From Chloroflexota bacterium (GTDB taxonomy: Bacteria > Chloroflexota > Anaerolineae > JAAYZQ01), in NCBI GenBank assembly GCA_018606645.1, contig JAGVRI010000008.1:68036-132035 (forward strand): a stretch of 64,000 bases of DNA, in the 5' to 3' direction. Below are positions 3,874 through 43,426 of the stretch, one piece after another. Both the position numbers and the translations under genes were made by a program. The notes beneath the pieces were generated by a model that worked only from the letters and a program-made list of their open reading frames with translations, was not told the DNA's origin and did not search any database. Each line of letters begins with the position of its first letter. Within the stretch, counting starts at the first letter, position 1.

Positions 3874-4362
3874 ATGAAACACTGGTACGCGGTATACACC
3901 AAGCCGAAGAAAGAGGCCCAGGTTCATGCGCTGTTGCAGGAACAGGGGCTGGAGACCTATCTGCCTGCCGTGCGGCGCAAGGTCCAACGGCGGGACCGAC
4001 CCGAGTGGGTGGTATACTTTCCCTGCTACCTCTTTGTCCGGGTTGATTTCCAGACCACGCCTCGCTCCTCCATTGACTGGTTGCCTGGGGTGCGGCATAT
4101 CGTTCGCTCCGGAGAACAACCCACGGTGGTAGCCGACGAGATTATCGAACTGATCCGTCAACGACTGGACAATCTGGAGATTGTGGGGTATAGTGATTTG
4201 AAGCAGGGCGACCGGGTGCGGATCACCGCCGGGCCTTTGCGGGACCTGGAAGCGATCTTTGACCGCCCCCTGCCGCCCAAGGAACGGGTTCGCATCTTGC
4301 TGGATGTCATGGGCCGGATGACGCCGGTCGAGATCGATCCCAGGCAGGTCGAGAAGCTCTAG
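3874..4362 (+). CDS. NusG/RfaH-family specialized transcription antiterminator paralog (NGN + KOW domains)
   Basis: MKHWYAVYTKPKKE..YLPA...FPCYLFVRVDF matches the RfaH/NusG NGN domain; C-terminal GDRVRITAGPLRDLEAIF is a KOW motif; small (162 aa) and embedded in a polysaccharide locus like RfaH/UpxY/LoaP paralogs. Confidence 0.75.
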   Translation: MKHWYAVYTKPKKEAQVHALLQEQGLETYLPAVRRKVQRRDRPEWVVYFPCYLFVRVDFQTTPRSSIDWLPGVRHIVRSGEQPTVVADEIIELIRQRLDNLEIVGYSDLKQGDRVRITAGPLRDLEAIFDRPLPPKERVRILLDVMGRMTPVEIDPRQVEKL

Positions 4363-4408: not shown

Positions 4409-5527
4409 GTGGGGGAGTCCGGGTTTAGGTTGGGCCGGTCTGACGGACAGAGTTTGTCAGATCGGCGGAGCCTGCCCACAATTTTGCCCATCACATGGAG
4501 GACTAGATTGAGGATTTTGATAACCGGGGGGGCCGGTTTCATCGGGAGCAACCTGGCTCACCGGCTGATCGGACAGGGCCATGACGTGGTCGTCTATGAT
4601 AATTTATCGCGGCGAGGCGCGGACCAGAATGTCGCCTGGCTGCGAACCGAGCACGGCGATGCCTGGAGGTTGCTCCAGGCGGACATCCGCGATTTCGAGA
4701 CGCTGCGTGAAGCCGCAGCCGAGGTGGAGGTTGTCTATCACCTGGCTTCCCAGGTAGCGGTGACAACCTCTGTGCAAGACCCACGGTACGATTTTGAAGT
4801 GAACGCCCTAGGTACCTTCAACGTATTGGAGGCAGCGCGGCTTTCGGACCGCCGTCCTATCGTCCTCTACGCTTCCACCAACAAAGTCTATGGTGGGATG
4901 GAAGAGGTAGCCGTGATCGAGGGCGAGACTCGGTACGCCTACCGTGATTTCCCCTACGGCATTGCCGAGACCCATCCTCTCGACTTTCACTCGCCCTACG
5001 GTTGTTCCAAAGGAGCTGGCGATCAGTATGTGCGCGATTACGCCCGCATCTATGGCCTGCCGACGGTGGTCTTCCGTCAGTCGTGCATCTATGGTCCACG
5101 GCAATTCGGCGTCGAAGATCAAGGATGGGTTGCCTGGTTCCTGATTGCGGCCGTGACCGGCCAGCCGATCACCATTTACGGCGATGGTAAGCAGGTGCGC
5201 GACGTGTTGTGGGTGGATGACCTGTTGGACCTGTACCAAAAGGCGGTGGACCAGATCGAGATCTCTGCCGGGCAGGTCTATAACGTGGGAGGTGGACCGG
5301 ACAATACTCTGGCCGTGTGGAGCGAGTTGGGGCCGATGCTGGAGGATATCCTGGGTCGTCGCATCGAGGTGACCTACAGCGACTGGCGTCCCGGCGATCA
5401 GCGTATCTTTGTCGCGGACATCCGCAAGGCGGAGCGGGAGCTGGGATGGCGGCCCCGGGTGGGGAAGGAGGAGGGTGTGCGCCGCCTGGCAGCCTGGGTG
5501 GTGGAACATCGGCAGTTGTTTGTGTAG
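4409..5527 (+). CDS. NAD-dependent epimerase, CDP-paratose/tyvelose 2-epimerase-like (SDR)
   Basis: ILITGGAGFIGSNLAHRL..VVYDNLSRRGADQNVAWL resembles the Tyv/RfbE N-terminus; true start probably near 4500 (ORF track start 4409 is upstream of the Rossmann motif). Confidence 0.6.
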   Translation: MGESGFRLGRSDGQSLSDRRSLPTILPITWRTRLRILITGGAGFIGSNLAHRLIGQGHDVVVYDNLSRRGADQNVAWLRTEHGDAWRLLQADIRDFETLREAAAEVEVVYHLASQVAVTTSVQDPRYDFEVNALGTFNVLEAARLSDRRPIVLYASTNKVYGGMEEVAVIEGETRYAYRDFPYGIAETHPLDFHSPYGCSKGAGDQYVRDYARIYGLPTVVFRQSCIYGPRQFGVEDQGWVAWFLIAAVTGQPITIYGDGKQVRDVLWVDDLLDLYQKAVDQIEISAGQVYNVGGGPDNTLAVWSELGPMLEDILGRRIEVTYSDWRPGDQRIFVADIRKAERELGWRPRVGKEEGVRRLAAWVVEHRQLFV

Positions 5528-5715: not shown

Positions 5716-6717
5716 TTGTTTCTGGAAAAGGATGATTTCGTGGCTTCTTATCTGGTGACCGGCTGTGCTGGCTTTATCGGATGGAAGGTGGCCGAGTTCC
5801 TGTTGGCTGAGGGCCACACCGTTGTCGGGGTGGATAATCTGAACGACGCCTACGACGTGCGCTTGAAGCGATGGCGCCTCACCCGGCTCCAGGACCAGCC
5901 GAATTTCACCTTCCACTGGTTGGATATCACCGACCGATCCGCGTTAGAACGTTCAACGTTCAATGTTCAACGTTTCGACGCCGTGATCAACCTGGCGGCA
6001 CGCGCCGGGGTGCGGCCCTCGGTGGAGAACCCGTGGGTGTACTATGAGACCAATGTGATGGGAACTCTGAACCTGCTGGAGCTGTGTCGGGAATTGGGGA
6101 TTGCCAAGTTTGTCCAGGCCTCAAGCTCCAGCGTGTATGGTCAAGGGAACCCGATGCCCTACCGCGAGGATCAGAACACCGACCATCCGCCTTCGCCCTA
6201 TGCGGCCTCGAAGAAAGCTGCGGAGACGTTGTGTTCGACCTATCATTCTCTCCATGGGCTGGACATTACCGTCCTCCGCTACTTTACGGTGTATGGTCCG
6301 GCGGGGCGGCCGGACATGAGTCCGTTTCGCTTTGTGCAGTGGATCAGCGAGGGGCGGCCGGTGACGATCTATGGCGATGGCACGCAGTCGCGGGATTTCA
6401 CCTACGTCGACGACATTGCGCGCGGTACCCTGGCTGCGCTCCGGCCGCTAGGCTTTGAGGTGATCAACCTGGGATCGGATCGGCCGATCGGGCTGATGGA
6501 TGCGATCCGGGTCATCGAGAAGCTGGTCGGTCGGCGGGCGCTGGTGGAATACCAGCCGCGCCATCCGGCGGATGTAAAGGATACCTGGGCGGAGATCGGC
6601 AAGGCGGAGTGGATGTTGGGCTGGCGGCCGGAGGTAGCCTTTGAGGAGGGAATGGCGCGGGTGGTGGAGTGGTATCGCGAGAATCGGGCGTGGGCGCGAG
6701 AGGTAGAGACGGGGTGA
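5716..6717 (+). CDS. NAD-dependent epimerase, UDP-glucuronate 4-epimerase-like (SDR)
   Basis: VTGCAGFIGWKVAEFLL..VVGVDNLNDAYDVRLKRWRL..F.FHWLDITD resembles CapI/WbnF/Gla-type nucleotide-sugar epimerases; YxxxK present (YAASKKA). Confidence 0.7.
   Translation: MFLEKDDFVASYLVTGCAGFIGWKVAEFLLAEGHTVVGVDNLNDAYDVRLKRWRLTRLQDQPNFTFHWLDITDRSALERSTFNVQRFDAVINLAARAGVRPSVENPWVYYETNVMGTLNLLELCRELGIAKFVQASSSSVYGQGNPMPYREDQNTDHPPSPYAASKKAAETLCSTYHSLHGLDITVLRYFTVYGPAGRPDMSPFRFVQWISEGRPVTIYGDGTQSRDFTYVDDIARGTLAALRPLGFEVINLGSDRPIGLMDAIRVIEKLVGRRALVEYQPRHPADVKDTWAEIGKAEWMLGWRPEVAFEEGMARVVEWYRENRAWAREVETG
5943..5978 (+). repeat. in-frame heptanucleotide array (GTTCAAC)x~4-5 inside the epimerase CDS, encoding RSTFNVQRF
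   Basis: direct reading: gttagaa c gttcaac gttcaat gttcaac gtttcga; 21 nt = 3 units keeps frame. Confidence 0.8.
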
Positions 6718-6895: not shown

Positions 6896-7147
6896 ATGAG
6901 AGAACTGGCTGGGATGGGAAAATATGAATTTGGCCGCCTGTTAGGGGAGCGAAGCATTGTGTGGCATTATGGCCGGGAGGAACTGAAGGACGACCTGGCG
7001 TATGCGCGTGGTGAGCAACACTTTACCGGTCCTCAACCCGGTGATTGTCGGTTGGCTTGCTCTGCTTCACGAGCAATTCGGAGAGGTACGGATTCCGGCA
7101 GCGGTCTTGGAGGAGTTGTGCCTCACCGAAGATCTGCGCGGCTCTGA
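6896..7147 (+). pseudogene. UPF0175-family antitoxin-like fragment
   Basis: GKYEFGRLLGERSI... resembles UPF0175 proteins; overlaps the next fragment in another frame. Confidence 0.3.
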
Positions 7148-7205
7148 AGCGGTGCAAGAGGCAGTACAGGCGAAGGCGGAATGTGTGCTGTTTGATGAGC
7201 GGTAA
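7002..7205 (+). pseudogene. DUF3368 (PIN-like toxin) C-terminal fragment
   Basis: NTLPVLNPVIVGWLALLHEQFGEVRIPAAVLEEL resembles the C-terminal part of DUF3368 proteins, which pair with UPF0175; only 67 codons. Confidence 0.3.
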
Positions 7206-7442
7206 GGACGAAAGGCTGCAAAATCGCTGGGGTTAAGGGTTACGGGGACTCTAGGGGGTTTTGATTCGCGCCCAGCGTGAGGGCAAGATGCCAACGTTAC
7301 GAGAGCCGATGGAAGAACTGCAGGAGAAGGCAGGTTTTCGCATTGGAGCGGATTTGTTTGCTGAGTTGCTGAGAGCGGCCGACGAAGAATGAGCGCCTGC
7401 CATTTTCTTAAATCGCGTGGGCTACATGGGGGATGGTGGCAG

Positions 7443-7580
7443 CGATTCAGGTCGTCGAGAAGCTGGTGGGCCGGCGGTCGCTGGTGGAATACCAGCGCCG
7501 TGGCATCCGGCGGATGTGAAGGATACCTGGGCGGAGATCGGCAAGGCGGAACCGGATGTTGGGCTGGTGGCGAGATCCGG
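7443..7580 (+). pseudogene. degenerate, frame-broken duplicate of the 3-prime end of the 5716..6717 epimerase gene
   Basis: about 90% nucleotide identity to 6503..6637 (tcgagaagctgg...ctggtggaataccagc...ggatacctgggcggagatcggcaaggcgga...) with small indels. Confidence 0.75.
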
Positions 7581-7622
7581 TTGAGACTTTTTGCGACGGG
7601 ACGAGTATGCTAGCTTCCACAA

Positions 7623-7651
7623 GTGACATGGATGATGTTGTGAGATAGAAT
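7623..7651 (+). promoter_or_regulatory. candidate sigma70-type promoter (GTGACA -17- TAGAAT) upstream of the GT4/wzx block
   Basis: hexamer spacing read directly; about 110 nt upstream of the 7764 start. Confidence 0.3.
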
Positions 7652-7763
7652 GGGGCGGTCAGTCAAGGTCAAGGGAACAGCAATCGCATACCTGCTCTCT
7701 GGAGGGTTCAGGTTCTTAAATGCGGCTGCTAGGAACAGGTTGGGTCAGGGAGATACAGCGTAG

Positions 7764-8936
7764 ATGTCTGAGGAAAAGCGGTTGAAGGTGTTGTTTATTA
7801 CTGCCTGGTATCCCACAAAGGAACACCCAATAGAGGGCATATTTGTGCGGGAGCATGCCAGAGCTGTTCGGCTTTACGACGATGTTGTTGTGCTCCACTG
7901 TGCAGGACCAGATCAGGGATTGAGCAAGCTTTGGCGGTTGGAATTGGAGAGCGATGCCAGCCTTACACAAGGCATTCCAACCTATCGAGTATGGTATCGG
8001 AGATCGAGGCTTCCCAAGGTTTCTTACTTGGGCTACCTTCTTAGTAGCCTCTGGGCGTTCGCTACCGTTGTAAAAGGTGGATTTCGTCCAAACGTGATTC
8101 ATGGGCATATTTATCAAGCAGGCGTGCCAGCGGTTCTAATTGGCAGGATGTTCCGTATTCCGGTGATCATAAGTGAGCATTACTCTGCTTTTCCAAGGCA
8201 TTTACTCTCCCGTCGCGAACTCTTGAAAGCACGTCTTGCGTTCACTTCGGCAGATCTCGTTCTACCTGTAAGCTACGCACTAAAAAATGGAATTGAGCAC
8301 TGTGGCATTCGGGCAAAGTTTGAGGTTGTGCCGAATGTCGTTGATGTGTCTCTGTTCCATCCCCCCGCTAGCAGGAATTCCGCACATGCGCTGAAGAGAA
8401 TCCTGTTCGTGGGGTTGTTGGATACTACTCACATAAAGGGGGTGCCAGATCTGCTGCAGGCGTTAGCCCGGTTACGAGAAGAGCGGAATGACTGGCATTT
8501 AGATATCGTGGGGGATGGGCCTGCGCGTGATGAATATGAACGACAGGTTCTGGAACTTGGGCTTGCTGGCAAGGTTACGTTTCATGGTATCAAATCCAAG
8601 GAAGACGTTGCTGAGTTTATGCGTCAGGCAGACTTTTTCGCATTGCCCAGCCTTTGGGACAATTTGCCCTGTGCAGCGATTGAGGCCGTGGCAAGTGGGT
8701 TGCCTATAGTTGCGACTTGTGCAGGCGGGATCCCCGAGATCGTTAAAGATACGGAAATGGGTTTCCTTGTACCACCGGGCAATGTGGTTGAGCTATCGAA
8801 AGCGATGGTGCGGATGATAGAGTGTTTAAATGAATTCGACCGCTGTGCAATTGCGGAGGAGGCCCGCAATCGATATGGGTTCGAGTCAGTGGGCGGTTTG
8901 ATGCATTCTATATATGCGAAGTATGGTGGGGGATGA
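7764..8936 (+). CDS. glycosyltransferase family 4 (GT-B fold)
   Basis: C-terminal PSLWDNLPCAAIEAVASGLPIVATCAGGIPEIV GT4 signature; lower GC than flanks. Confidence 0.75.
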   Translation: MSEEKRLKVLFITAWYPTKEHPIEGIFVREHARAVRLYDDVVVLHCAGPDQGLSKLWRLELESDASLTQGIPTYRVWYRRSRLPKVSYLGYLLSSLWAFATVVKGGFRPNVIHGHIYQAGVPAVLIGRMFRIPVIISEHYSAFPRHLLSRRELLKARLAFTSADLVLPVSYALKNGIEHCGIRAKFEVVPNVVDVSLFHPPASRNSAHALKRILFVGLLDTTHIKGVPDLLQALARLREERNDWHLDIVGDGPARDEYERQVLELGLAGKVTFHGIKSKEDVAEFMRQADFFALPSLWDNLPCAAIEAVASGLPIVATCAGGIPEIVKDTEMGFLVPPGNVVELSKAMVRMIECLNEFDRCAIAEEARNRYGFESVGGLMHSIYAKYGGG

Positions 8937-19555: not shown

Positions 19556-20848
19556 ATGAACGTGCTGGTTACTGGATCGAGAGGCTTTATCGGGAAGAAC
19601 CTGATCGCGTGGCTGGCCCAGGAGACAGATGTACAGGTCCTGGAGTTTGATCTAGAGCACACCCAGTCGGAATTGGCGGAGCGACTGGCGGTGGCGGATC
19701 TGGTTTACCATCTGGCTGGCGTGAATCGGCCCCAGTCGGTGGAGGAATTCCATACCGGTAATGTGGAGCTGACGGCTCAGATCTGCGAACTGTTGCTGCG
19801 CAACGGCCGGGTCACGCCCATTGTGTTCTCCTCCTCGATCCAGGCGGAATTAGACAACCCGTATGGTGTCAGCAAACGTTGGGCTGAGGCGGTGCTGGCC
19901 GACTATGCCCAGCGCAGTAGCGCAGCCGTGGCCATCTTCCGCCTGTCCAACGTCTTTGGCAAGTGGTGTCGGCCTCACTACAACTCGGTGGTCGCTACCT
20001 TTTGCTACCAGATAGCTCACGACCTGCCGATCACGATCTCTGACCCCAGCCGGGAGGTGCCGCTGGTGCATGTGGACGACGTGGTCCAGGCGTTCTTGGA
20101 GGCAGGTGAAGAGATCACAAGGCAGAAGTCAGAGGTCAAAGGTCAGAGGTCAGAGGTCAGAAAGCGTCGAGACACCTTGCATTTCTCGCCGTTGGCCATC
20201 AAGGATCTACCCCTGACGGCTGGCAATCCCTCGCGAGCAACCCTTGTCTACTGCGAAGCACGGCCGATCTACACCGTCACGCTTGGCCGGCTGGCAGATC
20301 TGATCCGCTCCTTCCGTGCGAGTCGTCAGACGTTGGTGGCTCCGGATTTGAGCGATCCGTTCGTTTATAAGCTGTATGGCACCTATCTCTCCTATCTGGA
20401 GCCGAGTGACTTTGCCTATGACCTAACGCAGCGCACCGATGCCCGAGGCGCGCTCGCCGAGTTCATCAAATCGCCTGCTTTCGGTCAGATTTTTGTCTCG
20501 CGCACAAGACCGGGCGTCACCCGCGGCAACCATTTCCACCACACCAAGGCCGAGAAGTTCCTGGTACTGGAGGGGGAGGCCGTTATCCGGTTGCGAGCGA
20601 TCAGGAACCAGAGGACAGGGGTCGGAGGACAGAGGTCAGAGGTCGGGGATCAGGGGGCAGAGGGTGGTGGGCAGGGAGTAGAGGTGGTCGAGTATCGGGT
20701 GTCGGGGCGGGATTTTCGGGTGGTGGACATCCCGCCCGGTTACACCCACTCTATCGAGAACGTGGGGGACGGGGAGCTGGTGACTTTATTTTGGGCCAGT
20801 GAGGTCTTTGATTCGGACAAATCGGATACATATTACGAGCAAGTATGA
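19556..20848 (+). CDS. fnlB: UDP-2-acetamido-2,6-dideoxy-hexulose reductase/epimerase (FnlB/CapF/WbjC family; SDR + C-terminal cupin), with two heptamer-derived in-frame insertions
   Basis: colinear with S. aureus Cap5F ([95 protein letters not shown]). Confidence 0.85.
20127..20161 (+). repeat. heptanucleotide array AGTCAGA GGTCAAA (GGTCAGA)x3 inside the fnlB-like CDS
   Basis: direct reading; encodes [13 protein letters not shown], absent from CapF homologs. Confidence 0.85.
20608..20690 (+). repeat. degenerate heptanucleotide array (about 11 units, GGTCAGA-like) inside the cupin domain of the fnlB-like CDS
   Basis: GGACAGG GGTCGGA GGACAGA GGTCAGA GGTCGGG GATCAGG GGGCAGA ...; encodes [25 protein letters not shown] inserted where CapF has about 6 residues. 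Confidence 0.8.
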
Positions 20849-21978: not shown

Positions 21979-23213
21979 TGCGTATCTTGCTTCTGACTCA
22001 GTGGTTTCAACCTGAGCCTACGAGCAAAGGGTTGCCTTTTGCCAAGGCGCTGGCAGGGCGTGGACATTACGTGGAAGTGCTCACCGGCTTTCCGAACTAT
22101 CCGGGGGGCAAGTTGTATCCTGGCTATCGAGTCCGTCCTTGGCAGCAGGAAATCATGGAGGGCATTCCCGTGAATCGGGTGGCGCTGTATCCTAGCCATG
22201 ACCGGTCTGGACTGCGCCGCATGGCCAATTACTTGAGTTTCGCGTTGGCCGCCCTGACCCTGGGGCCCTGGCTGGTATCAAGGCCTGAGATCATCCATGT
22301 GTACAACCTGGTTACGTTGATCCCCGCAGCTCTTCTGCTGCGATGGATATTCAGGGCCAAAGTGCTGTTGGACGTGCAGGACCTGTGGCCCGAGTCTGTG
22401 ATCAACTCCGGTATGTTGAACAATCGGCTACTTCATCGGATTCTGACGGCAGGCTCCATCTGGGCGTATCGGCAGGCTGACTGGATTACCGTTCAGTCGC
22501 CCGGCTTTCAACGGGCGTTAATACAACGCGGCGTGTCATCGGACCGGATCGAAGTGATCTATAACTGGTGCAATGAGGCTGAACAACGCCGTGCTCCGCG
22601 TGACGGGGCACTGGCCCAGCAACTGGGCCTGGACGGTCGTTTCAATGTGCTCTTTGCCGGCACGATGGGGGTCATGCAAGGTCTGGATACTGTCCTGGAG
22701 GCAGCGCGACTTTGCCATGGGCGTGTGCCGCAAGCTCAATTTGTACTGATCGGAGGTGGGGTGGAGCGAGATCGCCTAGAAGCCAAGGCGACTGCCATGG
22801 GCTTGACCAATGTGCGGTTCTTGCCCCGCCAGCCTCCTGACGGTATCGGACGTTTCTATGCACTGGCGGACGCGCTGCTCGTACATCTTAAGGATGACCC
22901 CTTGTTCCAGATCACCATTCCGTCCAAGACTCAAGCGTACCTGTATATGGGCAAACCGATCATCATGGCGGTTCGGGGTGATGCTGCAGAACTGGTTCAG
23001 CAGGCTGGGGCAGGATTGATGTGCGCGCCTGAAGATCCTGTCGCGCTGACCGACGCGGTAGCCTGCCTGGCAGCAATGGCTCCCGAGGAACGGGAACGGC
23101 TTGGGCGCTCTGGAGCCGAGTTTTATGCCCGGAATCTGTCCATGGAGGCCGGGGTCGATCGGTTTGAGCGACGGATGCAGCAGATCGTCCATTGCCCGGG
23201 CCCGAGACGGTGA
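21978..23213 (+). CDS. glycosyltransferase family 4, WbuB-like (putative L-FucNAc transferase)
   Basis: [40 protein letters not shown] resembles WbuB N-terminus; follows fnlABC as in O-antigen clusters. Confidence 0.7.
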   Translation: MRILLLTQWFQPEPTSKGLPFAKALAGRGHYVEVLTGFPNYPGGKLYPGYRVRPWQQEIMEGIPVNRVALYPSHDRSGLRRMANYLSFALAALTLGPWLVSRPEIIHVYNLVTLIPAALLLRWIFRAKVLLDVQDLWPESVINSGMLNNRLLHRILTAGSIWAYRQADWITVQSPGFQRALIQRGVSSDRIEVIYNWCNEAEQRRAPRDGALAQQLGLDGRFNVLFAGTMGVMQGLDTVLEAARLCHGRVPQAQFVLIGGGVERDRLEAKATAMGLTNVRFLPRQPPDGIGRFYALADALLVHLKDDPLFQITIPSKTQAYLYMGKPIIMAVRGDAAELVQQAGAGLMCAPEDPVALTDAVACLAAMAPEERERLGRSGAEFYARNLSMEAGVDRFERRMQQIVHCPGPRR

Positions 23214-23249
23214 TTCGAGATTTGAACGCACAAGTGGTGGTGCCAGGTC

Positions 23250-23468
23250 TTGGAACACAGCGATCAATTGAACATGCGGCAAGTGCTGCAACGCCGACGC
23301 GAGACCCATCGGAAAACGCTCCAACAGGACGTGGAACGTCTGACGACGGCCGCCGCAGCGCTGGGTGTCCAGCGGGTGGTCTTGTTTGGTTCTCTGGCAC
23401 GACAGGAGGCGCGTTTGACGAGCGACCTGGACTTTATGAAGCGTGAGCCACGCCGAGGTGTGCGGTGA
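23250..23468 (+). CDS. minimal nucleotidyltransferase (MNT) fragment or small ORF
   Basis: VLFGSLARQEARLTSDLDF = GS...DxD nucleotidyltransferase motif; only 72 codons, overlaps the next MNT ORF in a different frame. Confidence 0.35.
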   Translation: MEHSDQLNMRQVLQRRRETHRKTLQQDVERLTTAAAALGVQRVVLFGSLARQEARLTSDLDFMKREPRRGVR

Positions 23469-23869
23469 CTGATCGGCCCACGTTCGATCTGGCTGCCAGC
23501 CGGTCCTATCTCAGGTCCCGTCAGGAGCGGGAGTTTCGCGTCAGAGAGCAACGACGGCAGGAGGCGTTGCAGGCTGTGCGCGCGGCGGCTCAGTCTGTCC
23601 TGCCCCGCTTTCCTGGGGTGCGCCGGGCCTATCTGTTTGGTTCAGTGCTGCGCCCCGGCGCAATGCATGCTATGTCGGATGTCGACGTTGCCCTCGAAGG
23701 CGACCTCGATGCGGAAGCCTACTTTGCTGTCTGGCGCGAGCTGGAAAGGGCGGCTCCAGGTTGGCAGATCGAGCTGATCGAACTGGGCGTTGATGTATAC
23801 GTTTCCGCTCGCGTGCGTGAACAAGGGGAGCTGATCTATGAACGTGCAGATTCGGACGCTGAAAGCTGA
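23465..23869 (+). CDS. MNT-type nucleotidyltransferase, MntA-like antitoxin
   Basis: AYLFGSVLRPGAMHAMSDVDVALE motif; overlaps the downstream HEPN-like gene by 32 nt. Confidence 0.55.
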   Translation: MTDRPTFDLAASRSYLRSRQEREFRVREQRRQEALQAVRAAAQSVLPRFPGVRRAYLFGSVLRPGAMHAMSDVDVALEGDLDAEAYFAVWRELERAAPGWQIELIELGVDVYVSARVREQGELIYERADSDAES

Positions 23870-24317
23870 TATTTCGGCCGATCTCGAGGCAATCTCCGAG
23901 ATCTATCAGGCAATCCATCAGTTTGGAGCAGACCTGCGTGATGAGCGCGAACGCATTGTTGTTGCCTACTATCTGCACAATCTCTACTGCGCTTTCGAGA
24001 GCATTTTTGAGCGCATTGCGCAGACCTTTGGCAATCAGATTGCTGACCGTGCTGGTTGGCACGCCGATCTGTTGCGTCGGATGACGTTGGACATCGAGGG
24101 GGTGCGTCCACGCGTGCTGAGCGCGCCAGCCTATGACAGCCTGGACGAACTGCGTCGTTTCCGCCACGTGTTCCGCAGCGCGTATCGCCTGCGACTGGAT
24201 GCTGACCGACTGGCTTTGGTATATCGAAAGGCCCAGGCCTTGGAGCATGTCTATCGCGCTGACATTGAGCGATTTCTGGCCTTCCTGGATGACCTGCTGC
24301 AGGTCGAGGATGAGTGA
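23838..24317 (+). CDS. HEPN-like protein, putative HepT-like toxin partner of the upstream MNT
   Basis: all-helical 159 aa ORF immediately after and overlapping an MNT gene; candidate R-x-x-x-H (LRRFRHVFRSAY) motif; family assignment tentative. Confidence 0.4.
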   Translation: MNVQIRTLKADISADLEAISEIYQAIHQFGADLRDERERIVVAYYLHNLYCAFESIFERIAQTFGNQIADRAGWHADLLRRMTLDIEGVRPRVLSAPAYDSLDELRRFRHVFRSAYRLRLDADRLALVYRKAQALEHVYRADIERFLAFLDDLLQVEDE

Positions 24318-24951
24318 GCACAGAAGTATCCCGGTGTCCGATGGCGTCTACCGCCGCTACGGCAAACGCTTGTTGGACCTGGCGCTGACGGTTCCCGCGC
24401 TCGTTCTGCTCTCGCCGCTGCTGGCGCTCATCGCCGTCCTAGTGCGGGTGACGATGGGCGAGCCGGTGCTCTTCCGCCAGCAGCGTCCCGGGTTGCACGG
24501 CCAGCCGTTTATTCTGTACAAGTTCCGCACCATGACCGACGCCTATGACGCTGAAGGTCGAGTCCGTTCAGAGGCCGATCGTCTTACCCCGTTGGGCCGC
24601 TTGTTGCGGAGCGCCAGCCTGGATGAACTGCCCGAGCTGTGGAACGTGCTCAAGGGGGAAATGAGCCTGGTCGGCCCGCGGCCGCTGCTGATGAAATACC
24701 TGGAGCGCTACACGCCAGAGCAGGCCCGCCGCCATGAAGTGAGACCGGGCCTCACCGGTTGGGCGCAGGTCAACGGCCGGAATGCCATCTCCTGGGAGCA
24801 AAAGTTTGCCCTGGACGTGTGGTATGTGGACCATTTCTCGTTCTGGCTGGATCTGAAGATCATGGCGCTGACCGCCTGGAAAATCCTGAAGCGTGAGGGG
24901 ATCAGCCAGCCGGGCCATGTGACGATGGAAGAGTTCAGAGGTTCCTTGTAA
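24310..24951 (+). CDS. pglC: small phosphoglycosyl transferase, PglC-type (undecaprenyl-phosphate N,N-diacetylbacillosamine 1-phosphate transferase family)
   Basis: colinear with C. jejuni PglC: single N-terminal TM ([25 protein letters not shown]), [47 protein letters not shown]-terminal GHVTMEEF; start ATG 24310 overlaps the HEPN stop. Confidence 0.85.
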
Positions 24952-25217
24952 TGTCTAAACCGACGACGATAGTCTACACAAGTCATGCTCGGGAAAAGTT
25001 CGAGCTTCTGGCTCGCTATGGCTTCCCAATCACCCAGCAGCAAGTAGAAGATACAATCCGCGAGCCCACTTTGGTAATCAAGCAAACCGGTGGTAGACTG
25101 ATCGCGCAGAAGGAGATCGGCCAACACCATCTGTTGCGTGTGATTTACCGGATAGAAGGACAATTCGCCATTGTGATCACCTTCTATCCGGCGCGGAGGA
25201 GGCGTTATGAAACTTAG
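24951..25217 (+). CDS. DUF4258-family protein (putative toxin of a DUF4258/DUF2283 pair)
   Basis: 88 aa, ...HAREKFELLARYGFPITQQQVEDTI... pattern; followed by overlapping DUF2283-like gene. Confidence 0.45.
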   Translation: MSKPTTIVYTSHAREKFELLARYGFPITQQQVEDTIREPTLVIKQTGGRLIAQKEIGQHHLLRVIYRIEGQFAIVITFYPARRRRYET

Positions 25218-25425
25218 CTATGACCGCTCTGAGGATATTCTAACCATCGAGACCACAGAAGAAGGCGTCATTGAATATGCCGAACAAGTAGAGAGCTTTA
25301 TCGCGCACTTTAGTCACGATGGTAGACTGCTCGTACTTGAGATTCTAGATGCCAGCGAATTCCTGACCAATGTCTTCAAGAGTACGGTCCGTGATCCGGG
25401 AGAAAAGTTGCTGGTGACCGCCTAA
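25207..25425 (+). CDS. DUF2283-family protein (putative antitoxin partner)
   Basis: [47 protein letters not shown] matches the DUF2283 pattern (..YD.E.D.LYI). Confidence 0.5.
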
Positions 25426-25433
25426 CGGATTCG

Positions 25434-25955
25434 ATGATGGCAAACCGGGAGATTATCACACCGCAAGCGATGGCGAGCAGGCCATCGGCTGTGCAAAGGC
25501 CATCCTGCGCTTCTGTGCAGATTGCCTTTCTCGATAGGAACCAGGCCATCGCGGAGCTGGTCGAATGCGCCGGACGGCTGCTAGCGTGTGATGATCGGGT
25601 ACTTGCGGTCGGGTTGTTCGGTTCGCTGGCCCGGAGCCAAGCCCTGCCCAGGAGCGACGCTGACCTGCTCATTGTGAGAGAGCATCCCCAGCAACGCTGG
25701 TTCGACCGCATCCCGAGTTATGCCGACGCCTTTGCAGGCGTTTCGTTGCCGGTGGATGTCTTTCCCTACACGGTGGAGGAACTCAGGCGGATGATCGCGG
25801 GTCGTTCCGGCTTTCTGCGCACTATCCTGAGAGAAGTGATTCCCCTCGGCGGGGATGCTGAGATTTGGAGCGACTTATCAGGGGTCAGAGCTCGGCGGTC
25901 AGAGGTCAGGGATCAGGGGGATGACGGATGCCGATCAGGTCGGCGAAGGACTTGA
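25434..25955 (+). CDS. MNT-type nucleotidyltransferase; C-terminus extended through a heptamer array
   Basis: [25 protein letters not shown] motif; the last about 25 codons are read through the GGTCAGA-type array. Confidence 0.55.
25881..25922 (+). repeat. heptanucleotide array (GGTCAGA-like, about 6 units) at the MNT/four-helix-bundle gene junction
   Basis: GGGTCAG AGCTCGG CGGTCAG AGGTCAG GGATCAG GGGGATG. Confidence 0.75.
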
Positions 25956-26308
25956 TGGTATATCAGAAAGCCTATCAACTGGCAATGGCGGTGTTCGAGG
26001 CAAGCAAGGAGTTCCCACCGGAAGAACGGTTTGCCTTGACCAGCCAGATTCGCCGCTCGTCACGTTCGGTGTGCCTGAATCTGCGCGAGGCGTGGGCCAA
26101 GCGTCGCTATGAAGCACATTTCGTGAGCAAACTCACCGATTGTGACGGCGAAAACGGTGAAACTGACTCGTCGCTCGATTTTGCCCGGGATTGCGGCTAC
26201 ATCAATTCCGATGAGCACGCTCAGCTCACTGCCCTCTGCGCGGAAATCGGCAAAATGCTCGGTAGCATGCTCAACAACCCCACCCCATTTCTGATCTGTG
26301 ACCGCTGA
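25928..26308 (+). CDS. four-helix-bundle protein (23S rRNA intervening-sequence protein family; HEPN-related)
   Basis: [45 protein letters not shown] matches the conserved N-terminal half of this family. Confidence 0.6.
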
Positions 26309-26318
26309 TCTCTGACTT
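26290..26318 (-). repeat. heptanucleotide array in inverted orientation (reverse complement AGTCAGA GATCAGC GGTCACA GATCAG)
   Basis: direct reading; forms the 3-prime end of the four-helix-bundle CDS. Confidence 0.7.
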
Positions 26319-26325
26319 CTGTGGC

Positions 26326-26366
26326 ATCAGCCAGCCGGGGCATGTGACGGTAGAAGAGTTCAGATG
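26326..26366 (+). repeat. direct duplicate of the pglC 3-prime end (24901..24941), about 37/41 identical
   Basis: atcagccagccgggccatgtgacgatggaagagttcagagg versus atcagccagccggggcatgtgacggtagaagagttcagatg. Confidence 0.85.
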
Positions 26367-26392
26367 TCAGAGATCAGCGTCAAGGGGGATGG
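26357..26392 (+). repeat. heptanucleotide array (GTTCAGA TGTCAGA GATCAGC GTCAAGG GGGATGG) continuing from the duplicated pglC end
   Basis: direct reading. Confidence 0.7.
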
Positions 26393-26457
26393 ATGTGAGC
26401 ATCTATTGGCTTGACATCAGGGAGGCGCAGGCGCGAATTCACTAGGCAGCGCAACGT

Positions 26458-26739
26458 TTGGCGGAGAAGTACCCGGAGATCGAGGAGATCTGGCTCTTTG
26501 GATCACTGGCGTGCGGCGACGCGGTGCCGAGGAGTGACGCGGATTTGCTGATCGTCTTAAGCGATAGCGACCTGGCGTTTTGGGCTCGCTCCGTACGGTA
26601 TCAGCCCGAGTTTTGCGGGATCGGCGTGGATGTACTGGCGTACACTTGCGCTGAACTCTTGCATTTGCGAGACGAGTGCGGAGGACTGTGGCACGAGGTA
26701 GAACGTGAGGGCATCTGTTTGTTTTGGCGAGTGCCCTGA
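26458..26739 (+). CDS. MNT-type nucleotidyltransferase (antitoxin-like)
   Basis: [24 protein letters not shown] motif, 93 aa. Confidence 0.55.
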   Translation: MAEKYPEIEEIWLFGSLACGDAVPRSDADLLIVLSDSDLAFWARSVRYQPEFCGIGVDVLAYTCAELLHLRDECGGLWHEVEREGICLFWRVP

Positions 26740-26748
26740 GGAGGGCGG

Positions 26749-27414
26749 GTGAGCATCCGGCAAATCGCCATTTATGGAGCTGGAGGATTCGCGCGGGAGG
26801 TGGCCTGGCTGGTTCAGGCCTGCAACGAGGGAGTTGAGAGATACCAGGTCGTTTGTTTCATTGATGATGACGTCGGAAAACATGGCACAATCCTCAACGG
26901 CATCCCCATTATGGGCCTGGAGCGCGCCCGCCAGCGATTCCCCGAAGCGCGGGTGGTCGGCGGTGTGGGCAGTCCCCAAACCCGCCAACTCCTCATGGAG
27001 AAGGCAGCCCGGGTTGGATTCGAGTTCGATACAATCATCCATCCCAGGGTGGAGCGGTCCGCCTGGATCGAAATCGGCGCGGGCACGGTGATCTGCGCCG
27101 GGAATATCTTGACCACCAACATTGTCCTGGGGCGACACGTACAGATCAATCTAGATTGCACCGTCGGCCATGATGTGATCATGGGGGATTATACCACGTT
27201 GGCTCCGGGAGTCCACGTGTCGGGATGCGTGCACCTGGGTCGGCGGGTTTATGTCGGCACTGGCGCGGTGATTATCAACGGCACGCTCGAGGAGCCGATC
27301 CGGATTGGCGATGATGCAGTGATCGGTGCTGGCGCGTGCGTGATCGGATCGGTACCGGCTGGCGTGACGGTGGTCGGGGTACCGGCGCGCCCGTTGCCGC
27401 GCTCCCAATCATGA
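26749..27414 (+). CDS. PglD/NeuD/WbpD-family sugar N-acetyltransferase (Rossmann-like N-domain + left-handed beta-helix)
   Basis: IAIYGAGGFAREVAWLV...VVCFIDDD N-domain plus hexapeptide repeats. Confidence 0.7.
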   Translation: MSIRQIAIYGAGGFAREVAWLVQACNEGVERYQVVCFIDDDVGKHGTILNGIPIMGLERARQRFPEARVVGGVGSPQTRQLLMEKAARVGFEFDTIIHPRVERSAWIEIGAGTVICAGNILTTNIVLGRHVQINLDCTVGHDVIMGDYTTLAPGVHVSGCVHLGRRVYVGTGAVIINGTLEEPIRIGDDAVIGAGACVIGSVPAGVTVVGVPARPLPRSQS

Positions 27415-28088
27415 GGGACGAGACGAAAGCGTTGATGAGTGAAGAACACAGACGTCTGGTGGTCTATGGCGCCGGCGGCCATGCCAAAGTGGTGCTGGCG
27501 ACGATCGAGGCCGAGGGAAAGTACCAGGTGGTCGGTGTGCTCGATTACAATCCGGCCAGGCATGGTCAACAGGTCTATGGCTATCCGGTGCTGGGGGGCT
27601 GGGAACAGCTCGAAACGCTGCAAAGTCAGAACGTCTATGCGGCGTTTGTGGCGATTGGCGATAACGAGCATCGGGCCCAAGTGGCTCGGCGATTGATTGA
27701 GCATGGATTCGAGTTGGTCACGGCGATCCACCCATCAGTTGTCCGCCTGCGGGGTTCGTGCATCGGTCCGGGGACGCTGGTCGCACCGTATGCATTCGTC
27801 GGGGGCGATTGCACCATCGGCGATGGGGTTATCATCAACACGGGCGCGGTGGTGGGGCACGATAGCAGGGTCGGTTCCTGGGTACACATCGGCGCGGGTG
27901 TGATTTTGGCCGGACAAGCCCGGGTCGGGGACTATTCGTTCCTGGGCATCAGCGCGTCTGTGTTGCCCGGAGTGACGGTGGGTCGGCGGGTCATAGTCGG
28001 GGCCCATGCCGTGGTCACCGAAGACCTTCCGGACGATGTCACCGCGGTCGGGGTGCGGGCGCGGATCATCAAACAGAGGTCGCCTTGA
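27411..28088 (+). CDS. second PglD/NeuD-family sugar N-acetyltransferase (tandem paralog)
   Basis: LVVYGAGGHAKVVLATIEAEGKYQVVGVLD.N plus hexapeptide repeats; ATGA overlap with previous gene if start is 27411. Confidence 0.7.
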   Translation: MRDETKALMSEEHRRLVVYGAGGHAKVVLATIEAEGKYQVVGVLDYNPARHGQQVYGYPVLGGWEQLETLQSQNVYAAFVAIGDNEHRAQVARRLIEHGFELVTAIHPSVVRLRGSCIGPGTLVAPYAFVGGDCTIGDGVIINTGAVVGHDSRVGSWVHIGAGVILAGQARVGDYSFLGISASVLPGVTVGRRVIVGAHAVVTEDLPDDVTAVGVRARIIKQRSP

Positions 28089-40453: not shown

Positions 40454-41082
40454 AGCGGAGAGATGACCGATGGACCTGGATCGTGGCCCTGGCCGGGATG
40501 CTGATCATCCGGTTACTCGCCGGGGGTGGGGGAAGCGATCTGACCGTCCAGGCTGACCGTCCGAACCAGACGATCCCGACTCCAACCACGCCGGCTCCCC
40601 CGGTTGCCTCACCGACGCCCAAAGCTACATTCACCTCTGTGCCCACGGAACCGCCGGTCACGCCTCGGCCGGCGACCGAAACAGCACCGGCACTTGATAC
40701 TCTTACGCCGACGGCGATGCCGGTTTCGCCGTCACCCACCGCCACTGCCCCGGTCCCCGGCACCCCATCTCCATCGGTGACTGTTCCCGGACCGACGGAG
40801 ACACCGACTGCCACCTCTGAACCAGAACAGAAACCCGTTTCGGTCAGTCCCACTTCCCCGATACCACCATCGGCCCCGGCATTAAGCGTCACCCCAGAAC
40901 TGGCGCAACCCACTCCGGTTGCCTCCAGGGAGGTCGCGCCGACTCCGGAGGCCACTGCACCGACGCCTCCTGCTGCGGAGGCTCGATCCGGATGGTGGTC
41001 CTGGCCGTACCTGTGGATCGCCGTGGGTTTGATCTTGATCGGCGCCGGATTGGTCATGCTGGTGCGACGGCGAAGCTCATGA
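40450..41082 (+). CDS. Pro/Thr/Ser-rich low-complexity protein with N- and C-terminal TM segments
   Basis: PTPTTPAPPVASPTPKATFTSVPTEPPVTPRP... linker flanked by hydrophobic segments; ATGA overlaps on both sides. Confidence 0.45.
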   Translation: MKRRDDRWTWIVALAGMLIIRLLAGGGGSDLTVQADRPNQTIPTPTTPAPPVASPTPKATFTSVPTEPPVTPRPATETAPALDTLTPTAMPVSPSPTATAPVPGTPSPSVTVPGPTETPTATSEPEQKPVSVSPTSPIPPSAPALSVTPELAQPTPVASREVAPTPEATAPTPPAAEARSGWWSWPYLWIAVGLILIGAGLVMLVRRRSS

Positions 41083-42395
41083 CCATTGGTTCGCCCTCCC
41101 GTCGATCGGCGATGCTGGCGTTAACGCTGGTGATCGTGGGGGCGGTTCTGATCGGATGGAGTCTGGTCCGCCTGTGGCCCCACGTCGTTCCTCAATCCGG
41201 CCCGGCAGTCACCGTGTCGCCCACCGTTCCACCTGCGACGGCTACCGAGCCGATCCTGCCTCCTGCCCCCACGGGGCTGTCCCTCGCTACTCAGGAGCGG
41301 CCCATCCACGCCACCCCCTCCCCTCGCTTCCAGACTGCGTCCCCGACGGCAACCGCTGTGGTAGGAGCCGGGCTCTCCCCGACACCGTCGGTGGGTCCGG
41401 GGCCGGTCACGCTGGCGCCATCCTCCAGCTTTACTCCGTCCTCTGTGCCTTCGGCGACGCCAGTACCAGTGTCAAAGGGGCTGTATTCCTTGCGACAGCG
41501 ATTGGGCGTTGGCGCCTCGAGTCGGCGCGTGACACAGGAGGTCGCCCGCGAACTGGAGTTCGGTTGGTACCTGGACTGGACGGCTCGGGCCGACGCGTTT
41601 CGGTCGCCTGAGGTGGAATATCTGCCCATGATCCGGATCAAGAACGGCCAGCCGCATCTGAAGGGGGACGCCCTGCGCCAGGCGGTGAAGGCTCTGCCTG
41701 GAGCGGTATGGCTGATTGGCAATGAACCGGATGTCAAATGGCAGGATAACGTCCCGCCAGAGGTGTATGCCCAGGTCTATCATGATCTGTACGACCAGCT
41801 CAAAGTCCTCGATCCCGCCTGTCAGGTGGCCATCGGCGGCGTGTCGCAGCCAACCCCTCTGCGGATGCGGTACCTGAACCTGATTCTGGAGGCGTACCAG
41901 AGCCAGTACGGCGAGCCCATGCCGGTGGACGTGTGGAACGTGCACAACTTTATCTTGCGTGAAGAACGGGATAGTTGGGGGGTGGACATTCCCCCGGGCC
42001 TGACCGAGCAGACTGGCATCCTGTATGAAATCACCGATCACGATGACCTGACCATCTTCCGTCAGCAGATCGTCGAGTTTCGGAAGTGGATGCGGGACCG
42101 AGGCCAGCAAGATAAACCCCTTATCGTCAGTGAGTACGGGATTCTCATGCCCAATGAGTATGGATTTCCCGCGCGCCGAGTCGAGCAGTTTATGGTGGAC
42201 ACCTTTGAGTTCTTTCGCACAGCGGTCGATCCCGCGTTGGGTTATGCCGCCGACGGGTATCGACTGGTGCAACGTTGGTGCTGGTTCAGTCTGGCCGATC
42301 CCCGCTATCCAACCGGCAACCTCGTCCAACTGGAGAGTGGACAACTGACCCCCCTCGGCAAAGCATTTCGATCCTACGCTGAGTCCCCCCACTAA
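41079..42395 (+). CDS. membrane-anchored GH-clan-A-like protein, paralog of the N-terminal domain of 34255..36750
   Basis: AVWLIGNEPDVKWQDNVPPEVYAQVYHDLYDQLK..QVAIGGVSQPTPLRMRYLN..MPVDVWNVHNFIL..KPLIVSEYGILMP aligns block-for-block with the 34255 protein; N-terminal TM + P/S/T linker. Confidence 0.6.
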   Translation: MTIGSPSRRSAMLALTLVIVGAVLIGWSLVRLWPHVVPQSGPAVTVSPTVPPATATEPILPPAPTGLSLATQERPIHATPSPRFQTASPTATAVVGAGLSPTPSVGPGPVTLAPSSSFTPSSVPSATPVPVSKGLYSLRQRLGVGASSRRVTQEVARELEFGWYLDWTARADAFRSPEVEYLPMIRIKNGQPHLKGDALRQAVKALPGAVWLIGNEPDVKWQDNVPPEVYAQVYHDLYDQLKVLDPACQVAIGGVSQPTPLRMRYLNLILEAYQSQYGEPMPVDVWNVHNFILREERDSWGVDIPPGLTEQTGILYEITDHDDLTIFRQQIVEFRKWMRDRGQQDKPLIVSEYGILMPNEYGFPARRVEQFMVDTFEFFRTAVDPALGYAADGYRLVQRWCWFSLADPRYPTGNLVQLESGQLTPLGKAFRSYAESPH

Positions 42396-42713: not shown

Positions 42714-42742
42714 TTGACAGAGGTAGTGCTATCTGCTAAAAT
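42714..42742 (+). promoter_or_regulatory. candidate sigma70 promoter TTGACA -17- TAAAAT for the TetR gene
   Basis: hexamers read directly. Confidence 0.45.
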
Positions 42743-42764
42743 GATACCGACCGGTCGGTATCAT
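42741..42764 (+). promoter_or_regulatory. perfect 24-bp palindrome ATGATACCGACC|GGTCGGTATCAT, putative TetR operator overlapping the -10
   Basis: exact inverted repeat, 15 nt upstream of the TetR start. Confidence 0.6.
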
Positions 42765-42778
42765 TTTCGGAGAGAACA

Positions 42779-43426
42779 ATGGCTACCCAACGACGAGGAG
42801 AAGAAACGCGTTCCCATATTCTGGACGTTGCCCTGGAATGTTTTGCCCGAAACGGCTATGACGCCACCAGTGTAGCAGAGATCTGCTCTCAGGCTGGTGT
42901 CACCAAGGGGGCCTTCTATCATCACTTCTCGGGCAAGCAGTCTCTCTTTCTGGATTTGCTGGAGCGCTGGTTGCAAGGCGTCGATGTCCAGTTGGAAGAA
43001 GCCCACCTCGAGGGGCGGAGTGTGCCGGAGGAGTTACTTCATATGACGGCGCTGGTCGGGCGGGTCTTCCAGGAAGCGAGAGGGAAACTTCCAATTTTCC
43101 TGGAGTTTCTGACCAAAGCCGGGCAGAGTCCTATCGTCTGGCAGGCGACAGTCGTACCCTTTCGCAAGTATCAGCGGTTCTTTGCCGGTCGGATCCAGCA
43201 GGGGATTGAGGAGGGGGCATTCGAGGCGGTGAATCCAGAAATGGCAGCCAACGTCCTCTTGTCTTTTTCGGTCGGGTTGGTGGCGTTGGGTCTGTTGGAC
43301 CCCCATGGCGCGGATTGGGCCCAGGTGGCCCAGGAAGGCATGAGGATCATGCTGGATGGACTGAGAAAGCATCAACGCGACTCAGCGATGAACGATAACA
43401 AACCACGAGAAGGGATGGGAAGATGA
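42779..43426 (+). CDS. TetR/AcrR-family transcriptional regulator
   Basis: N-terminal HTH TRSHILDVALECFARNGYDATSVAEICSQAGVTKGAFYHHFSGKQSLF. Confidence 0.85.
   Translation: MATQRRGEETRSHILDVALECFARNGYDATSVAEICSQAGVTKGAFYHHFSGKQSLFLDLLERWLQGVDVQLEEAHLEGRSVPEELLHMTALVGRVFQEARGKLPIFLEFLTKAGQSPIVWQATVVPFRKYQRFFAGRIQQGIEEGAFEAVNPEMAANVLLSFSVGLVALGLLDPHGADWAQVAQEGMRIMLDGLRKHQRDSAMNDNKPREGMGR

Follow-up and report, generated by a model that had tools for sequence, protein, structure and literature searches.

Leftover pglC 3' end and a heptamer-flanked four-helix-bundle gene in a variable glycan locus of a Chloroflexota bacterium

Introduction

Intervening sequences that carry an open reading frame (ORF) of the S23p/PF05635 type have been described in the 23S rRNA genes of Leptospira and Coxiella, and it is from these that the Pfam family takes its name. 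Tandem heptamers termed short tandemly repeated repetitive (STRR) sequences are reportedly found in heterocystous cyanobacteria, and homology-facilitated illegitimate recombination is said to take place in naturally transformable bacteria. Under this last process, a complete gene should be followed by foreign DNA and then by what remains of the 3' part of the recipient's own allele; the copies are expected to be diverged, and neither a recombinase nor terminal inverted repeats should be present. We consider here a locus that shares traits with each of these systems. It lies in a window of 64,000 nt from a Chloroflexota bacterium (contig JAGVRI010000008.1 of assembly GCA_018606645.1; the window is the whole stretch analysed, and positions are counted from its first letter). 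Between the genes for a GT4 glycosyltransferase and PglD, this glycan cluster holds pglC, an island of toxin–antitoxin (TA)-type genes, a second copy of the pglC 3' end, and a gene of the PF05635/TIGR02436 four-helix-bundle family that stands between arrays of heptamers and is here called the cassette.

The second copy of the pglC 3' end is real and lies with the cassette in a 514-nt indel, at a place where a sister strain has an intact pair of HEPN and nucleotidyltransferase (MNT) genes, HEPN'-MNT4; both types of parental junction occur elsewhere, in other contigs. The chances appear about even that the region from GT4 to pglD is a strain-variable 'junkyard', which would have arisen by repeated homology-anchored illegitimate recombination between diverged alleles of the glycan locus, together with turnover of the cassette. 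Both the order of events and the mechanism of recombination are what we infer from comparing sequences. The island itself amounts to the mosaicism usual in a variable glycan locus, and the cassette, together with its arrays, is of greater interest. Gene families were assigned by Pfam and NCBIfam profile matches, and the contigs used for comparison are cited by L numbers.

A second copy of the pglC 3' end

The initial annotation reported that the last 41 nt of pglC recur downstream as a near-identical direct repeat. The repeat exists and is slightly longer, with 40 of 45 nt (89%) shared between the native end of pglC (r1) and the second copy (r2; positions of all features are given in table 1). 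Its chance expectation over the whole window is about 5e-10, and the best self-match in 30 composition-preserving shuffles of 21–29 kb reaches 30 bits, against 54 bits for the repeat. Alignment confirms that the match derives from coding sequence: translated in frame, r2 yields the PglC C-terminus, residues 197–210 (tblastn E 3e-4). The substitutions between r1 and r2 number 2, 0 and 3 at codon positions 1, 2 and 3. Array-like motifs stand at both borders of r1 and of r2, and the motifs GGGATCAG and GTTCAGAGGT at the repeat borders in the pglC 3' end could have provided microhomology for joining. The resident pglC itself terminates in the heptamer-like TTCAGAGGT.

Repetitive arrays, a heterogeneous population (the window against L082 and L176) and a contig of metagenome type might let an assembler jump between strain variants at the heptamer arrays. 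Contig L001 (a Logan contig of 2004 nt from run SRR16588181, independent of the source assembly) is nevertheless 100% identical to positions 24805–26808, spanning r1, the cassette, r2 and the start of pglD, and a collapsed repeat or assembly artefact is therefore unlikely. The arrays, moreover, are imperfect and 20–40 nt long, and r1 and r2 differ at five positions; an assembly chimera is an extremely improbable explanation.

The relic lies in an indel relative to a sister strain

The sister strain, represented by L082 and L176, is about 94% identical to the window in nucleotide sequence. It keeps pglC, the DUF4258-like and DUF2283 ORFs, the HEPN relic and MNT3, which are followed directly by an intact HEPN' of 129 aa and an intact MNT4 of 129 aa with CAG at the position of the TAG in the window. 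In blastn comparison, L176 1–285 corresponds to window 25598–25879 and L176 717–1095 to window 26394–26772. The alignment thus breaks at 25879/25880 and 26393/26394, with 514 nt in the window against 431 nt in the sister strain, where they hold HEPN', intact, and the opening 12 codons of MNT4. No second pglC end, cassette or array is present in L082 and L176. A 48-nt tail of L082 was considered as a decayed pglC relic and rejected: its local alignment score of 23–27 is equalled or beaten by chance sites in the window, and L176 shows that the tail leads into HEPN'. The two strains also differ further upstream, where L082 diverges from the window inside MNT1 (at 23367/23368) and lacks window 23368–24189, which comprises the end of MNT1, MNT2 and the 5' part of HepT; only the last 55 HepT codons are left. 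In a separate difference (L176 1072–1110 against window 26749–27443), the first eight codons of pglD1 are joined to pglD2 in the sister strain, with about 670 nt gone and pglD1 lost; sugar genes therefore also vary between these strains.

These comparisons bear on an insertion of the TA block into the pglC 3' end that duplicated a target of about 45 bp, as had been proposed for this region. Direct repeats do flank the DUF4258-like, DUF2283, MNT3 and four-helix-bundle genes, and pglC and pglD are adjacent in many genomes, as the initial annotation assumed: across 75 usable PglC loci of other genomes, pglD starts no more than 200 nt from pglC in 43, and in L085/L086 (PglC 80% identical) GT4, pglC, pglD and pglE are contiguous with no small genes between them. 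The sister strain, however, refutes target-site duplication, since it has the same DUF4258-like, DUF2283, MNT3 and MNT4 genes and no duplicated pglC end. The indel runs from 25880 to 26393 and not from 24943 to 26322, so that its ends do not coincide with the repeats. Nor do the repeats bracket the island, or r2 mark its right edge, as had been claimed: only the right half is enclosed, the left half lies outside, and MNT4 stands to the right of r2. The copies are no more than 89% identical, and MNT3 occupies the same position in L083 with vertical-like divergence. Pfam finds no integrase, transposase or other recombinase among the ORFs of 23250–26739, in agreement with the earlier observation that none is visible in 23.2–26.8 kb. 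A single insertion is accordingly a very improbable origin of the repeat.

The four-helix-bundle cassette and its arrays

The gene in the indel was at first taken for one of two HEPN-like genes. It belongs instead to the four-helix-bundle family, with 108 bits to PF05635 (cut-off 33.8) and 99.4 bits to TIGR02436 (cut-off 24), and has relatives of known structure in the PDB (2gsc and 2rld). A divergent HEPN protein was rejected, as hhalign against the PF05168 HEPN alignment gives a probability of 0.15% and no HEPN Pfam match is found at E<=0.01. So was Avd, the accessory protein of diversity-generating retroelements, since NF033474 reaches 39.3 bits, with 80 required, and no ORF resembling a reverse transcriptase is found among the neighbours. 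More than 7,900 homologues are found at E<=1e-20; the closest are 72–89% identical across metagenomes, with named hits in Chloroflexi, Opitutaceae and Deltaproteobacteria.

With up to two mismatches allowed, the heptamer motif GGTCAGAGGTCAG is found 14 times where 2 would be expected. These sites form five clusters, of which two lie within a Cap5F-like gene and the others are A+, B- and C+. A+ and B- bracket the four-helix-bundle gene in inverted orientation. A direct repeat (D2; 25887–25923 against 26355–26391, 76%) restates A+ with its flank, GGGGGATGACGGATG, as C+ with its flank, GGGGGATGGATG. B- and C+ form an inverted repeat (I1) matching at 18 of 19 bases, with the pglC relic as its loop.

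Predicted folding of the RNA from 25870–26400 pairs A+ with B- around the ORF, and this arrangement appears to be general. Complementarity was counted over 70 non-redundant metagenomic cassette loci, using 90 nt upstream and 90 nt downstream, and in 68 of them the two sides form a predicted duplex of -30 kcal/mol or better (mean -69, against -37 for a same-orientation control). Arrays pair with their own partner at -69 kcal/mol and with those of other loci at -63 (P 0.02), a small difference because most loci share one heptamer unit. The unit differs between lineages while the complementarity of the two sides is kept (CCTGACT types; GAAGACG in L050; GAGCAGG/CCTGCTC in a Nostoc plasmid), and these lineages offer the clearer evidence of covariation.

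Such pairing raises the alternative that the relic is kept for a function, the B-/relic/C+ hairpin acting as an RNA processing site, terminator or attenuator that separates the cassette from the genes downstream, and its origin in pglC being incidental. The hairpin is predicted to be strong (-50.4 kcal/mol, z -4.6), and the pairing of A+ with B-, predicted here as in the 68 loci, resembles the stems of 23S rRNA intervening sequences. The loop sequence is, however, unique to this locus, a Rfam scan of 23000–27000 at E<=1 gives no match (and no rRNA lies there), and the sister strain does without the hairpin. We regard a functional relic as very unlikely.

Heptamer arrays are also found within a gene and on a plasmid. 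The Cap5F/FnlB-like ORF at 19556–20848 contains two in-frame insertions, of about 33 aa (20095–20263) and 21 aa (20600–20665), which consist largely of GGTCAGA array; both are missing from the 71%-identical orthologue in L083. On the Nostoc flagelliforme plasmid pNFSY06 (L177, 1430–1950), a 53%-identical four-helix-bundle gene lies between inverted GAGCAGG/CCTGCTC arrays, with GCGATTTTGTGAGAT and ATCTCACAAAATCGC as an outer inverted repeat. Of the 40 matching records in a plasmid collection, 21 are from Nostoc, and every other genus named there is likewise cyanobacterial. A search of the literature, incomplete in coverage and no proof of novelty, returned no paper on PF05635/TIGR02436 genes with inverted heptamer arrays, and nothing specific on the array sequences, on heptanucleotide arrays or on HEPN/MNT genes in O-antigen clusters.

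Related clusters and the origin of the relic

Among species representatives the best PglC match is 70% identical, so that no close genome is available there; PglC proteins are about 60% identical across phyla. Exact look-ups of the PglC, PglF and HepT proteins of the window gave no entry. A syntenic relative is L083/L084 (about 77% nucleotide identity, syntenic from FnlA to PglE), in which GT4 is followed by two small ORFs, pglC, an intact HEPN gene, an MNT3 orthologue, pglD1, pglD2 and pglE. The stretch pglC-HEPN-MNT3-pglD of L083 is 75–83% identical throughout, and MNT3, lying between pglC and pglD there, is therefore an old resident of this slot and not a recent insert. The window lacks the 5' two-thirds of the HEPN partner of MNT3, and the DUF4258-like/DUF2283 pair occupies that place. 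Two further differences from L083 concern its spacing: the GT4-pglC slot (7492–8000), where the window has MNT1, MNT2 and HepT, holds the two small ORFs (66 and 102 aa) without a Pfam match, and a gap of 463 nt (4661–5124) separates Cap5F from Epimerase_2, genes that overlap in the window.

Both junctions that could have given rise to the present arrangement occur elsewhere. In the closest relatives of the cassette (89% amino acid identity, L087–L095), it stands immediately downstream of a pglC-type gene, the ORF of which continues into the + array, and the junction 'pglC 3' end / + array / four-helix-bundle gene / - array' is intact. In L097 the order is a pglC 3' fragment, HEPN-MNT3a, a second HEPN-MNT pair, a second pglC relic (REGINQPGHAMMEEFWG, followed by a stop; 3886–3936) that abuts the + array, the cassette, and a truncated HEPN-MNT3b. 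The truncation breakpoint of this copy b, AACGGATTCGATGATG, is the same as that of the HEPN relic in the window. Copy a, with no cassette adjoining, also carries TTCAGGGGT. L096 has HEPN-MNT3 followed by a decayed cassette, a counterpart of the 'MNT3 / cassette' junction. As observations in their own right, L097 has a PIG-L deacetylase gene in place of the 5' two-thirds of a pglC gene, and more small TA-like ORFs lie near cassettes in L096 (1204–3180 and 3959–4285) and L097 (1345–2010), Phd/YefM-like and PIN-like by eye.

The relic, C+ and GGGGGATGGATG together look like a copy of the 'pglC end / cassette 5' edge' junction, which is intact in L087 and L097. It is about an even call that r2 remains from the 3' end of a pglC copy that was displaced, and that it is still fused, in the same nucleotide region at which arrays adjoin pglC in related contigs, to the C+ array and start region of a cassette formerly lying behind that pglC; the earlier view of the second copy as a recombination scar involving the pglC 3' end is supported. 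If ordinary processes are assumed, the simplest course of events has two steps. One allele would have carried pglC, small genes, the truncated HEPN with MNT3, and a cassette; another would have carried pglC and a cassette, then HEPN'-MNT4-pglD. Recombination, homologous upstream and with an illegitimate join at the array-like GGGATCAG ... GTTCAGAGGT in the pglC 3' end, would have stacked the first allele on the second and left 45 nt. A later deletion would then have removed the body of the second cassette, HEPN' and the first MNT4 codons, fusing the ribosome-binding site and ATG of the cassette in frame to MNT4. Stacking is supported by the presence of cassettes and HEPN-MNT3 modules in different slots of one cluster type across contigs: the cassette lies in the FnlA-Cap5F or the Cap5F-Epimerase_2 slot in L098, L108, L110 and L131, and L098 has HEPN-MNT3 in the Cap5F-Epimerase_2 slot.

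Self-comparison of the window yields only two relic-type repeats, that of pglC and one of an NAD-dependent epimerase gene (5716–6717), part of which recurs downstream as a decayed copy. Fragments of UPF0175 and DUF3368 (PIN-like) genes lie between the two epimerase copies (6896–7392; Pfam E 1e-7 each). These copies differ at codon positions 1, 2 and 3 by 7, 2 and 7 substitutions; pooled with the pglC pair, 2 of 21 changes fall at the second position (binomial P ~0.013). This avoidance of second positions suggests that the copies of both pairs had already diverged, as functional alleles, when joining took place. The recurrence of 3' parts of sugar genes as junction remnants around TA genes, in line with the initial annotation, has two further examples (the epimerase relic and the pglC relic of L097) and is borne out as a pattern, which would be a by-product of allele replacement rather than the work of a dedicated mechanism.

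The same evidence may be read as movement of the cassette itself. It would once have lain right after pglC; a circular or tandem intermediate, arising by copying or excision and including 45 nt of its left flank, would have re-integrated about 1 kb downstream by crossover within the heptamer array of the cassette, replacing HEPN'. The order A+/gene/B-/pglC end/C+ corresponds, in exact circular permutation, to pglC end/A+/gene/B- in L087 and L097, C+ duplicates A+ with its GGGGGATG flank, and a single indel between the window and the sister strain takes in the entire unit. The heptamer-like end of the resident pglC might be a footprint, and the many slots and the 72–89% identity, including named hits of three phyla and higher than that of the neighbours, imply mobility. 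Yet no recombinase is present, a flank copy is seen at no other cassette locus, a recent intragenomic move is not obvious with r1 and r2 differing at 5 of 45 positions, and the supposed footprint may be native, as TTCAGGGGT also occurs in L097 where no cassette adjoins. Self-movement is thus a possible but doubtful account of the relic.

Several points weigh against the stacking of alleles as set out above. Every sequence used for comparison is a short metagenomic contig, and since the population itself yielded no parental alleles, the history is rebuilt from more distant contigs. The sister strain is itself joined from two runs (L082, SRR27730040; L176, SRR27730047) by an overlap of 333 nt at 99.7%, and its cassette-free state could be either ancestral or derived. 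Stacking requires two steps, the second being deletion, and the codon-position argument draws on 21 substitutions in all. At about 88 other cassette loci, no copy of the upstream flank is found downstream of the cassette, save for an unrelated low-complexity match; the relic arrangement is rare.

Decay of the toxin–antitoxin genes

The TA genes of the island are mostly decayed, typically with the toxin lost and the antitoxin-like MNT retained. The four MNT ORFs of the initial annotation are all real, but two are incomplete: MNT1 is a fragment and MNT4 is truncated at its 5' end with an in-frame TAG. MNT4 homology begins at 26395, upstream of the TAG, and about 20 N-terminal residues are gone; members of its family measure 140–155 aa and are positioned after a HEPN gene, and MNT4 is therefore a truncated remnant. 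Homology of MNT3 to its orthologues stops at about 25879, and the rest of its ORF is read-through of the heptamer array. No intact HEPN (PF05168) gene precedes MNT3 (38 codons are left) or MNT4 (none), while the MNT3 and MNT4 families follow an overlapping HEPN gene in L083, L176 and L175, and intact HEPN-MNT pairs are present in L083, L096, L097, L098 and L176.

MNT2 and the HepT-like_2 gene, which overlap by 32 nt, would by family constitute a type VII MntA-HepT pair, with MNT2 scoring 37 bits (E 2e-9) to NCBIfam MntA_antitoxin, below the equivalog cut-off of 60. This HepT-like_2 gene is the only HEPN-type gene of the two once counted; the cryptic HEPN relic before MNT3 is an addition. Of the DUF4258/DUF2283 pair, DUF2283 exceeds its cut-off, and the DUF4258 match, although it spans the full profile, falls short of its own. 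That TA genes stabilize exchangeable glycan cassettes, as had also been suggested, finds no support, and the pattern fits the companion suggestion of hitch-hiking, with decay, because two genes for HEPN toxins have disappeared or been cut short, only fragments of MNT1 and MNT4 remain, and the window and the sister strain differ in which TA pairs are intact.

Other features of the window

A near-perfect palindrome of 42 nt (42732–42773, 90% self-complementary) lies between the ORFs at 40992–42395 and 42779–43426. A second Bac_transf domain (47701–48243, 45% identical) is found at the end of the ORF at 46768–48264, and the cluster therefore has two candidate initiating phosphoglycosyl transferases.

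Table 1. Features of the locus, in order of position in the window.
Feature	Position	Strand	Evidence or remark
Epimerase copy 1, 3'-proximal 139 nt of the epimerase gene	6490..6628	+	
Epimerase copy 2, decayed relic	7430..7571	+	86.6% over 142 nt, frameshifts, blastn E 7e-41
Array in 33-aa insertion of Cap5F-like gene	20127..20160	+	
Array in 21-aa insertion of Cap5F-like gene	20620..20646	+	86% identical to A+ array (25879–25920)
MNT1, 72-aa nucleotidyltransferase fragment, pseudogene-like	23250..23468	+	Pfam NTP_transf_2 E 2e-4, residues 38–62 only
MNT2, MntA-like nucleotidyltransferase, apparently intact, overlaps next gene	23465..23869	+	Pfam Polbeta E 7e-9 (also NTP_transf_2)
HepT-like HEPN toxin candidate, partner of MNT2; stop overlaps pglC start	23838..24317	+	Pfam HepT-like_2 E 1e-29, profile positions 2–109 of 110
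pglC/EpsL-type small phosphoglycosyl transferase, functional copy	24310..24951	+	Pfam Bac_transf E 2e-65; 80–83% orthologues in syntenic L083, L085
r1, native pglC 3' end, bounded by heptamer-like GGGATCAG and GTTCAGAGGT	24898..24942	+	
DUF4258-like small ORF, sub-threshold	24951..25217	+	Pfam E 0.024, 15.4 bits (cut-off 25), full-length profile match; 98% identical in L082
DUF2283 small ORF, partner of DUF4258-like ORF	25207..25425	+	Pfam E 2e-7, 31.2 bits (cut-off 23)
HEPN (PF05168) relic, last 38 codons, frame intact, overlaps MNT3 start	25421..25537	+	tblastn with L083 HEPN residues 93–130, 71%
MNT3, nucleotidyltransferase without its HEPN partner	25434..25955	+	Pfam NTP_transf_2 E 2e-6; 72% orthologue between pglC and pglD in L083
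514-nt block, in window and not in sister strain	25880..26393	+	blastn against L176
A+, upstream array, GGTCAGA-type units, then GGGGGATG	25880..25920	+	
Four-helix-bundle gene, PF05635 23S_rRNA_IVP/TIGR02436, not HEPN	25928..26308	+	Pfam E 4e-31; TIGR02436 E 1e-28
B-, downstream array, inverted; encodes last residues FLICDR* of four-helix-bundle protein	26289..26321	-	
r2, relic of pglC 3' end, in loop of B-/C+ hairpin	26323..26367	+	40/45 to r1
C+, third array, direct orientation relative to A+, then GGGGGATGGATG; copies cassette 5' edge	26358..26379	+	
MNT4 remnant, 5'-truncated, in-frame TAG 26443–26445, possible restart TTG 26458	26389..26739	+	Pfam Polbeta E 2e-9

Comparison with known systems

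Surface-glycan loci are among the fastest-exchanged parts of bacterial genomes, and this locus is a nucleotide-level record of the debris of exchange: stacked alleles, orphaned antitoxin-like genes and leftover gene ends. The four-helix-bundle gene is very common and small, lies nearly always between inverted heptamer arrays and turns up at different places in a single conserved type of cluster. Should the cassette move without any recombinase, or undergo processing in the manner of rRNA intervening sequences, the mystery behind the annotations 'four helix bundle protein' and 'S23 ribosomal protein' would be explained, as would the origin of in-frame arrays in genes such as the Cap5F-like gene.

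The cassette resembles 23S rRNA intervening sequences in the family of its ORF and in the placing of the ORF between inverted repeats that are predicted to form a long RNA stem. It differs in lying between MNT3 and MNT4 in a glycan operon and not in an rRNA gene, and in that its inverted repeats are tandem heptamer arrays of lineage-specific unit (GGTCAGA, GAGCAGG or GAAGACG). An intervening sequence of 23S rRNA proper was rejected for the cassette, which does not lie in a 23S rRNA helix and has no rRNA or Rfam match in the region scanned. A bolder and, in our estimation, unlikely proposal is that PF05635/TIGR02436 genes between inverted heptamer arrays form a recombinase-less mobile cassette, the protein-operon counterpart of these intervening sequences. 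It would cross phyla, insert at the 3' ends of genes in glycan and defence-type loci, push out neighbours such as HEPN toxins and now and then take along a piece of its former flank, with the arrays acting as both RNA stem and recombination substrate. If this were true, the pglC relic would be the first 'transduced flank' to reveal a circular or tandem intermediate.

Integron cassettes and attC sites offer a second comparison: the window cassette likewise consists of a small gene that lacks a promoter and has imperfect inverted repeats on its 3' side, occurs in varied slots, and could conceivably pass through a circular intermediate. It has repeats on both sides, however, and these are tandem heptamers without the GTTRRRY core. 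An integron-like reading was rejected, as neither an integrase nor attI is seen in the region and the attC core is lacking. The STRR sequences of cyanobacteria are similarly tandem heptanucleotide arrays in intergenic DNA, and the four-helix-bundle gene of the Nostoc plasmid is flanked by such arrays, whereas those of the window are paired and inverted around one gene family; the literature searched holds no paper tying STRR-type arrays to PF05635 genes.

Type VII MntA-HepT and other HEPN-MNT modules are matched by the overlapping MNT2 and HepT-like_2 genes and by the MNT3 and MNT4 families, which elsewhere follow an overlapping HEPN gene. The window departs from them in that its PF05168 partners are gone or reduced to 38 codons and that MNT1 and MNT4 are fragments. 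Homology-facilitated illegitimate recombination, finally, would account for both relic pairs of the window, whose layout and divergence appear to fit what it predicts. The difference is that one junction in the window falls within repeat arrays, which may add a recombination activity of their own.

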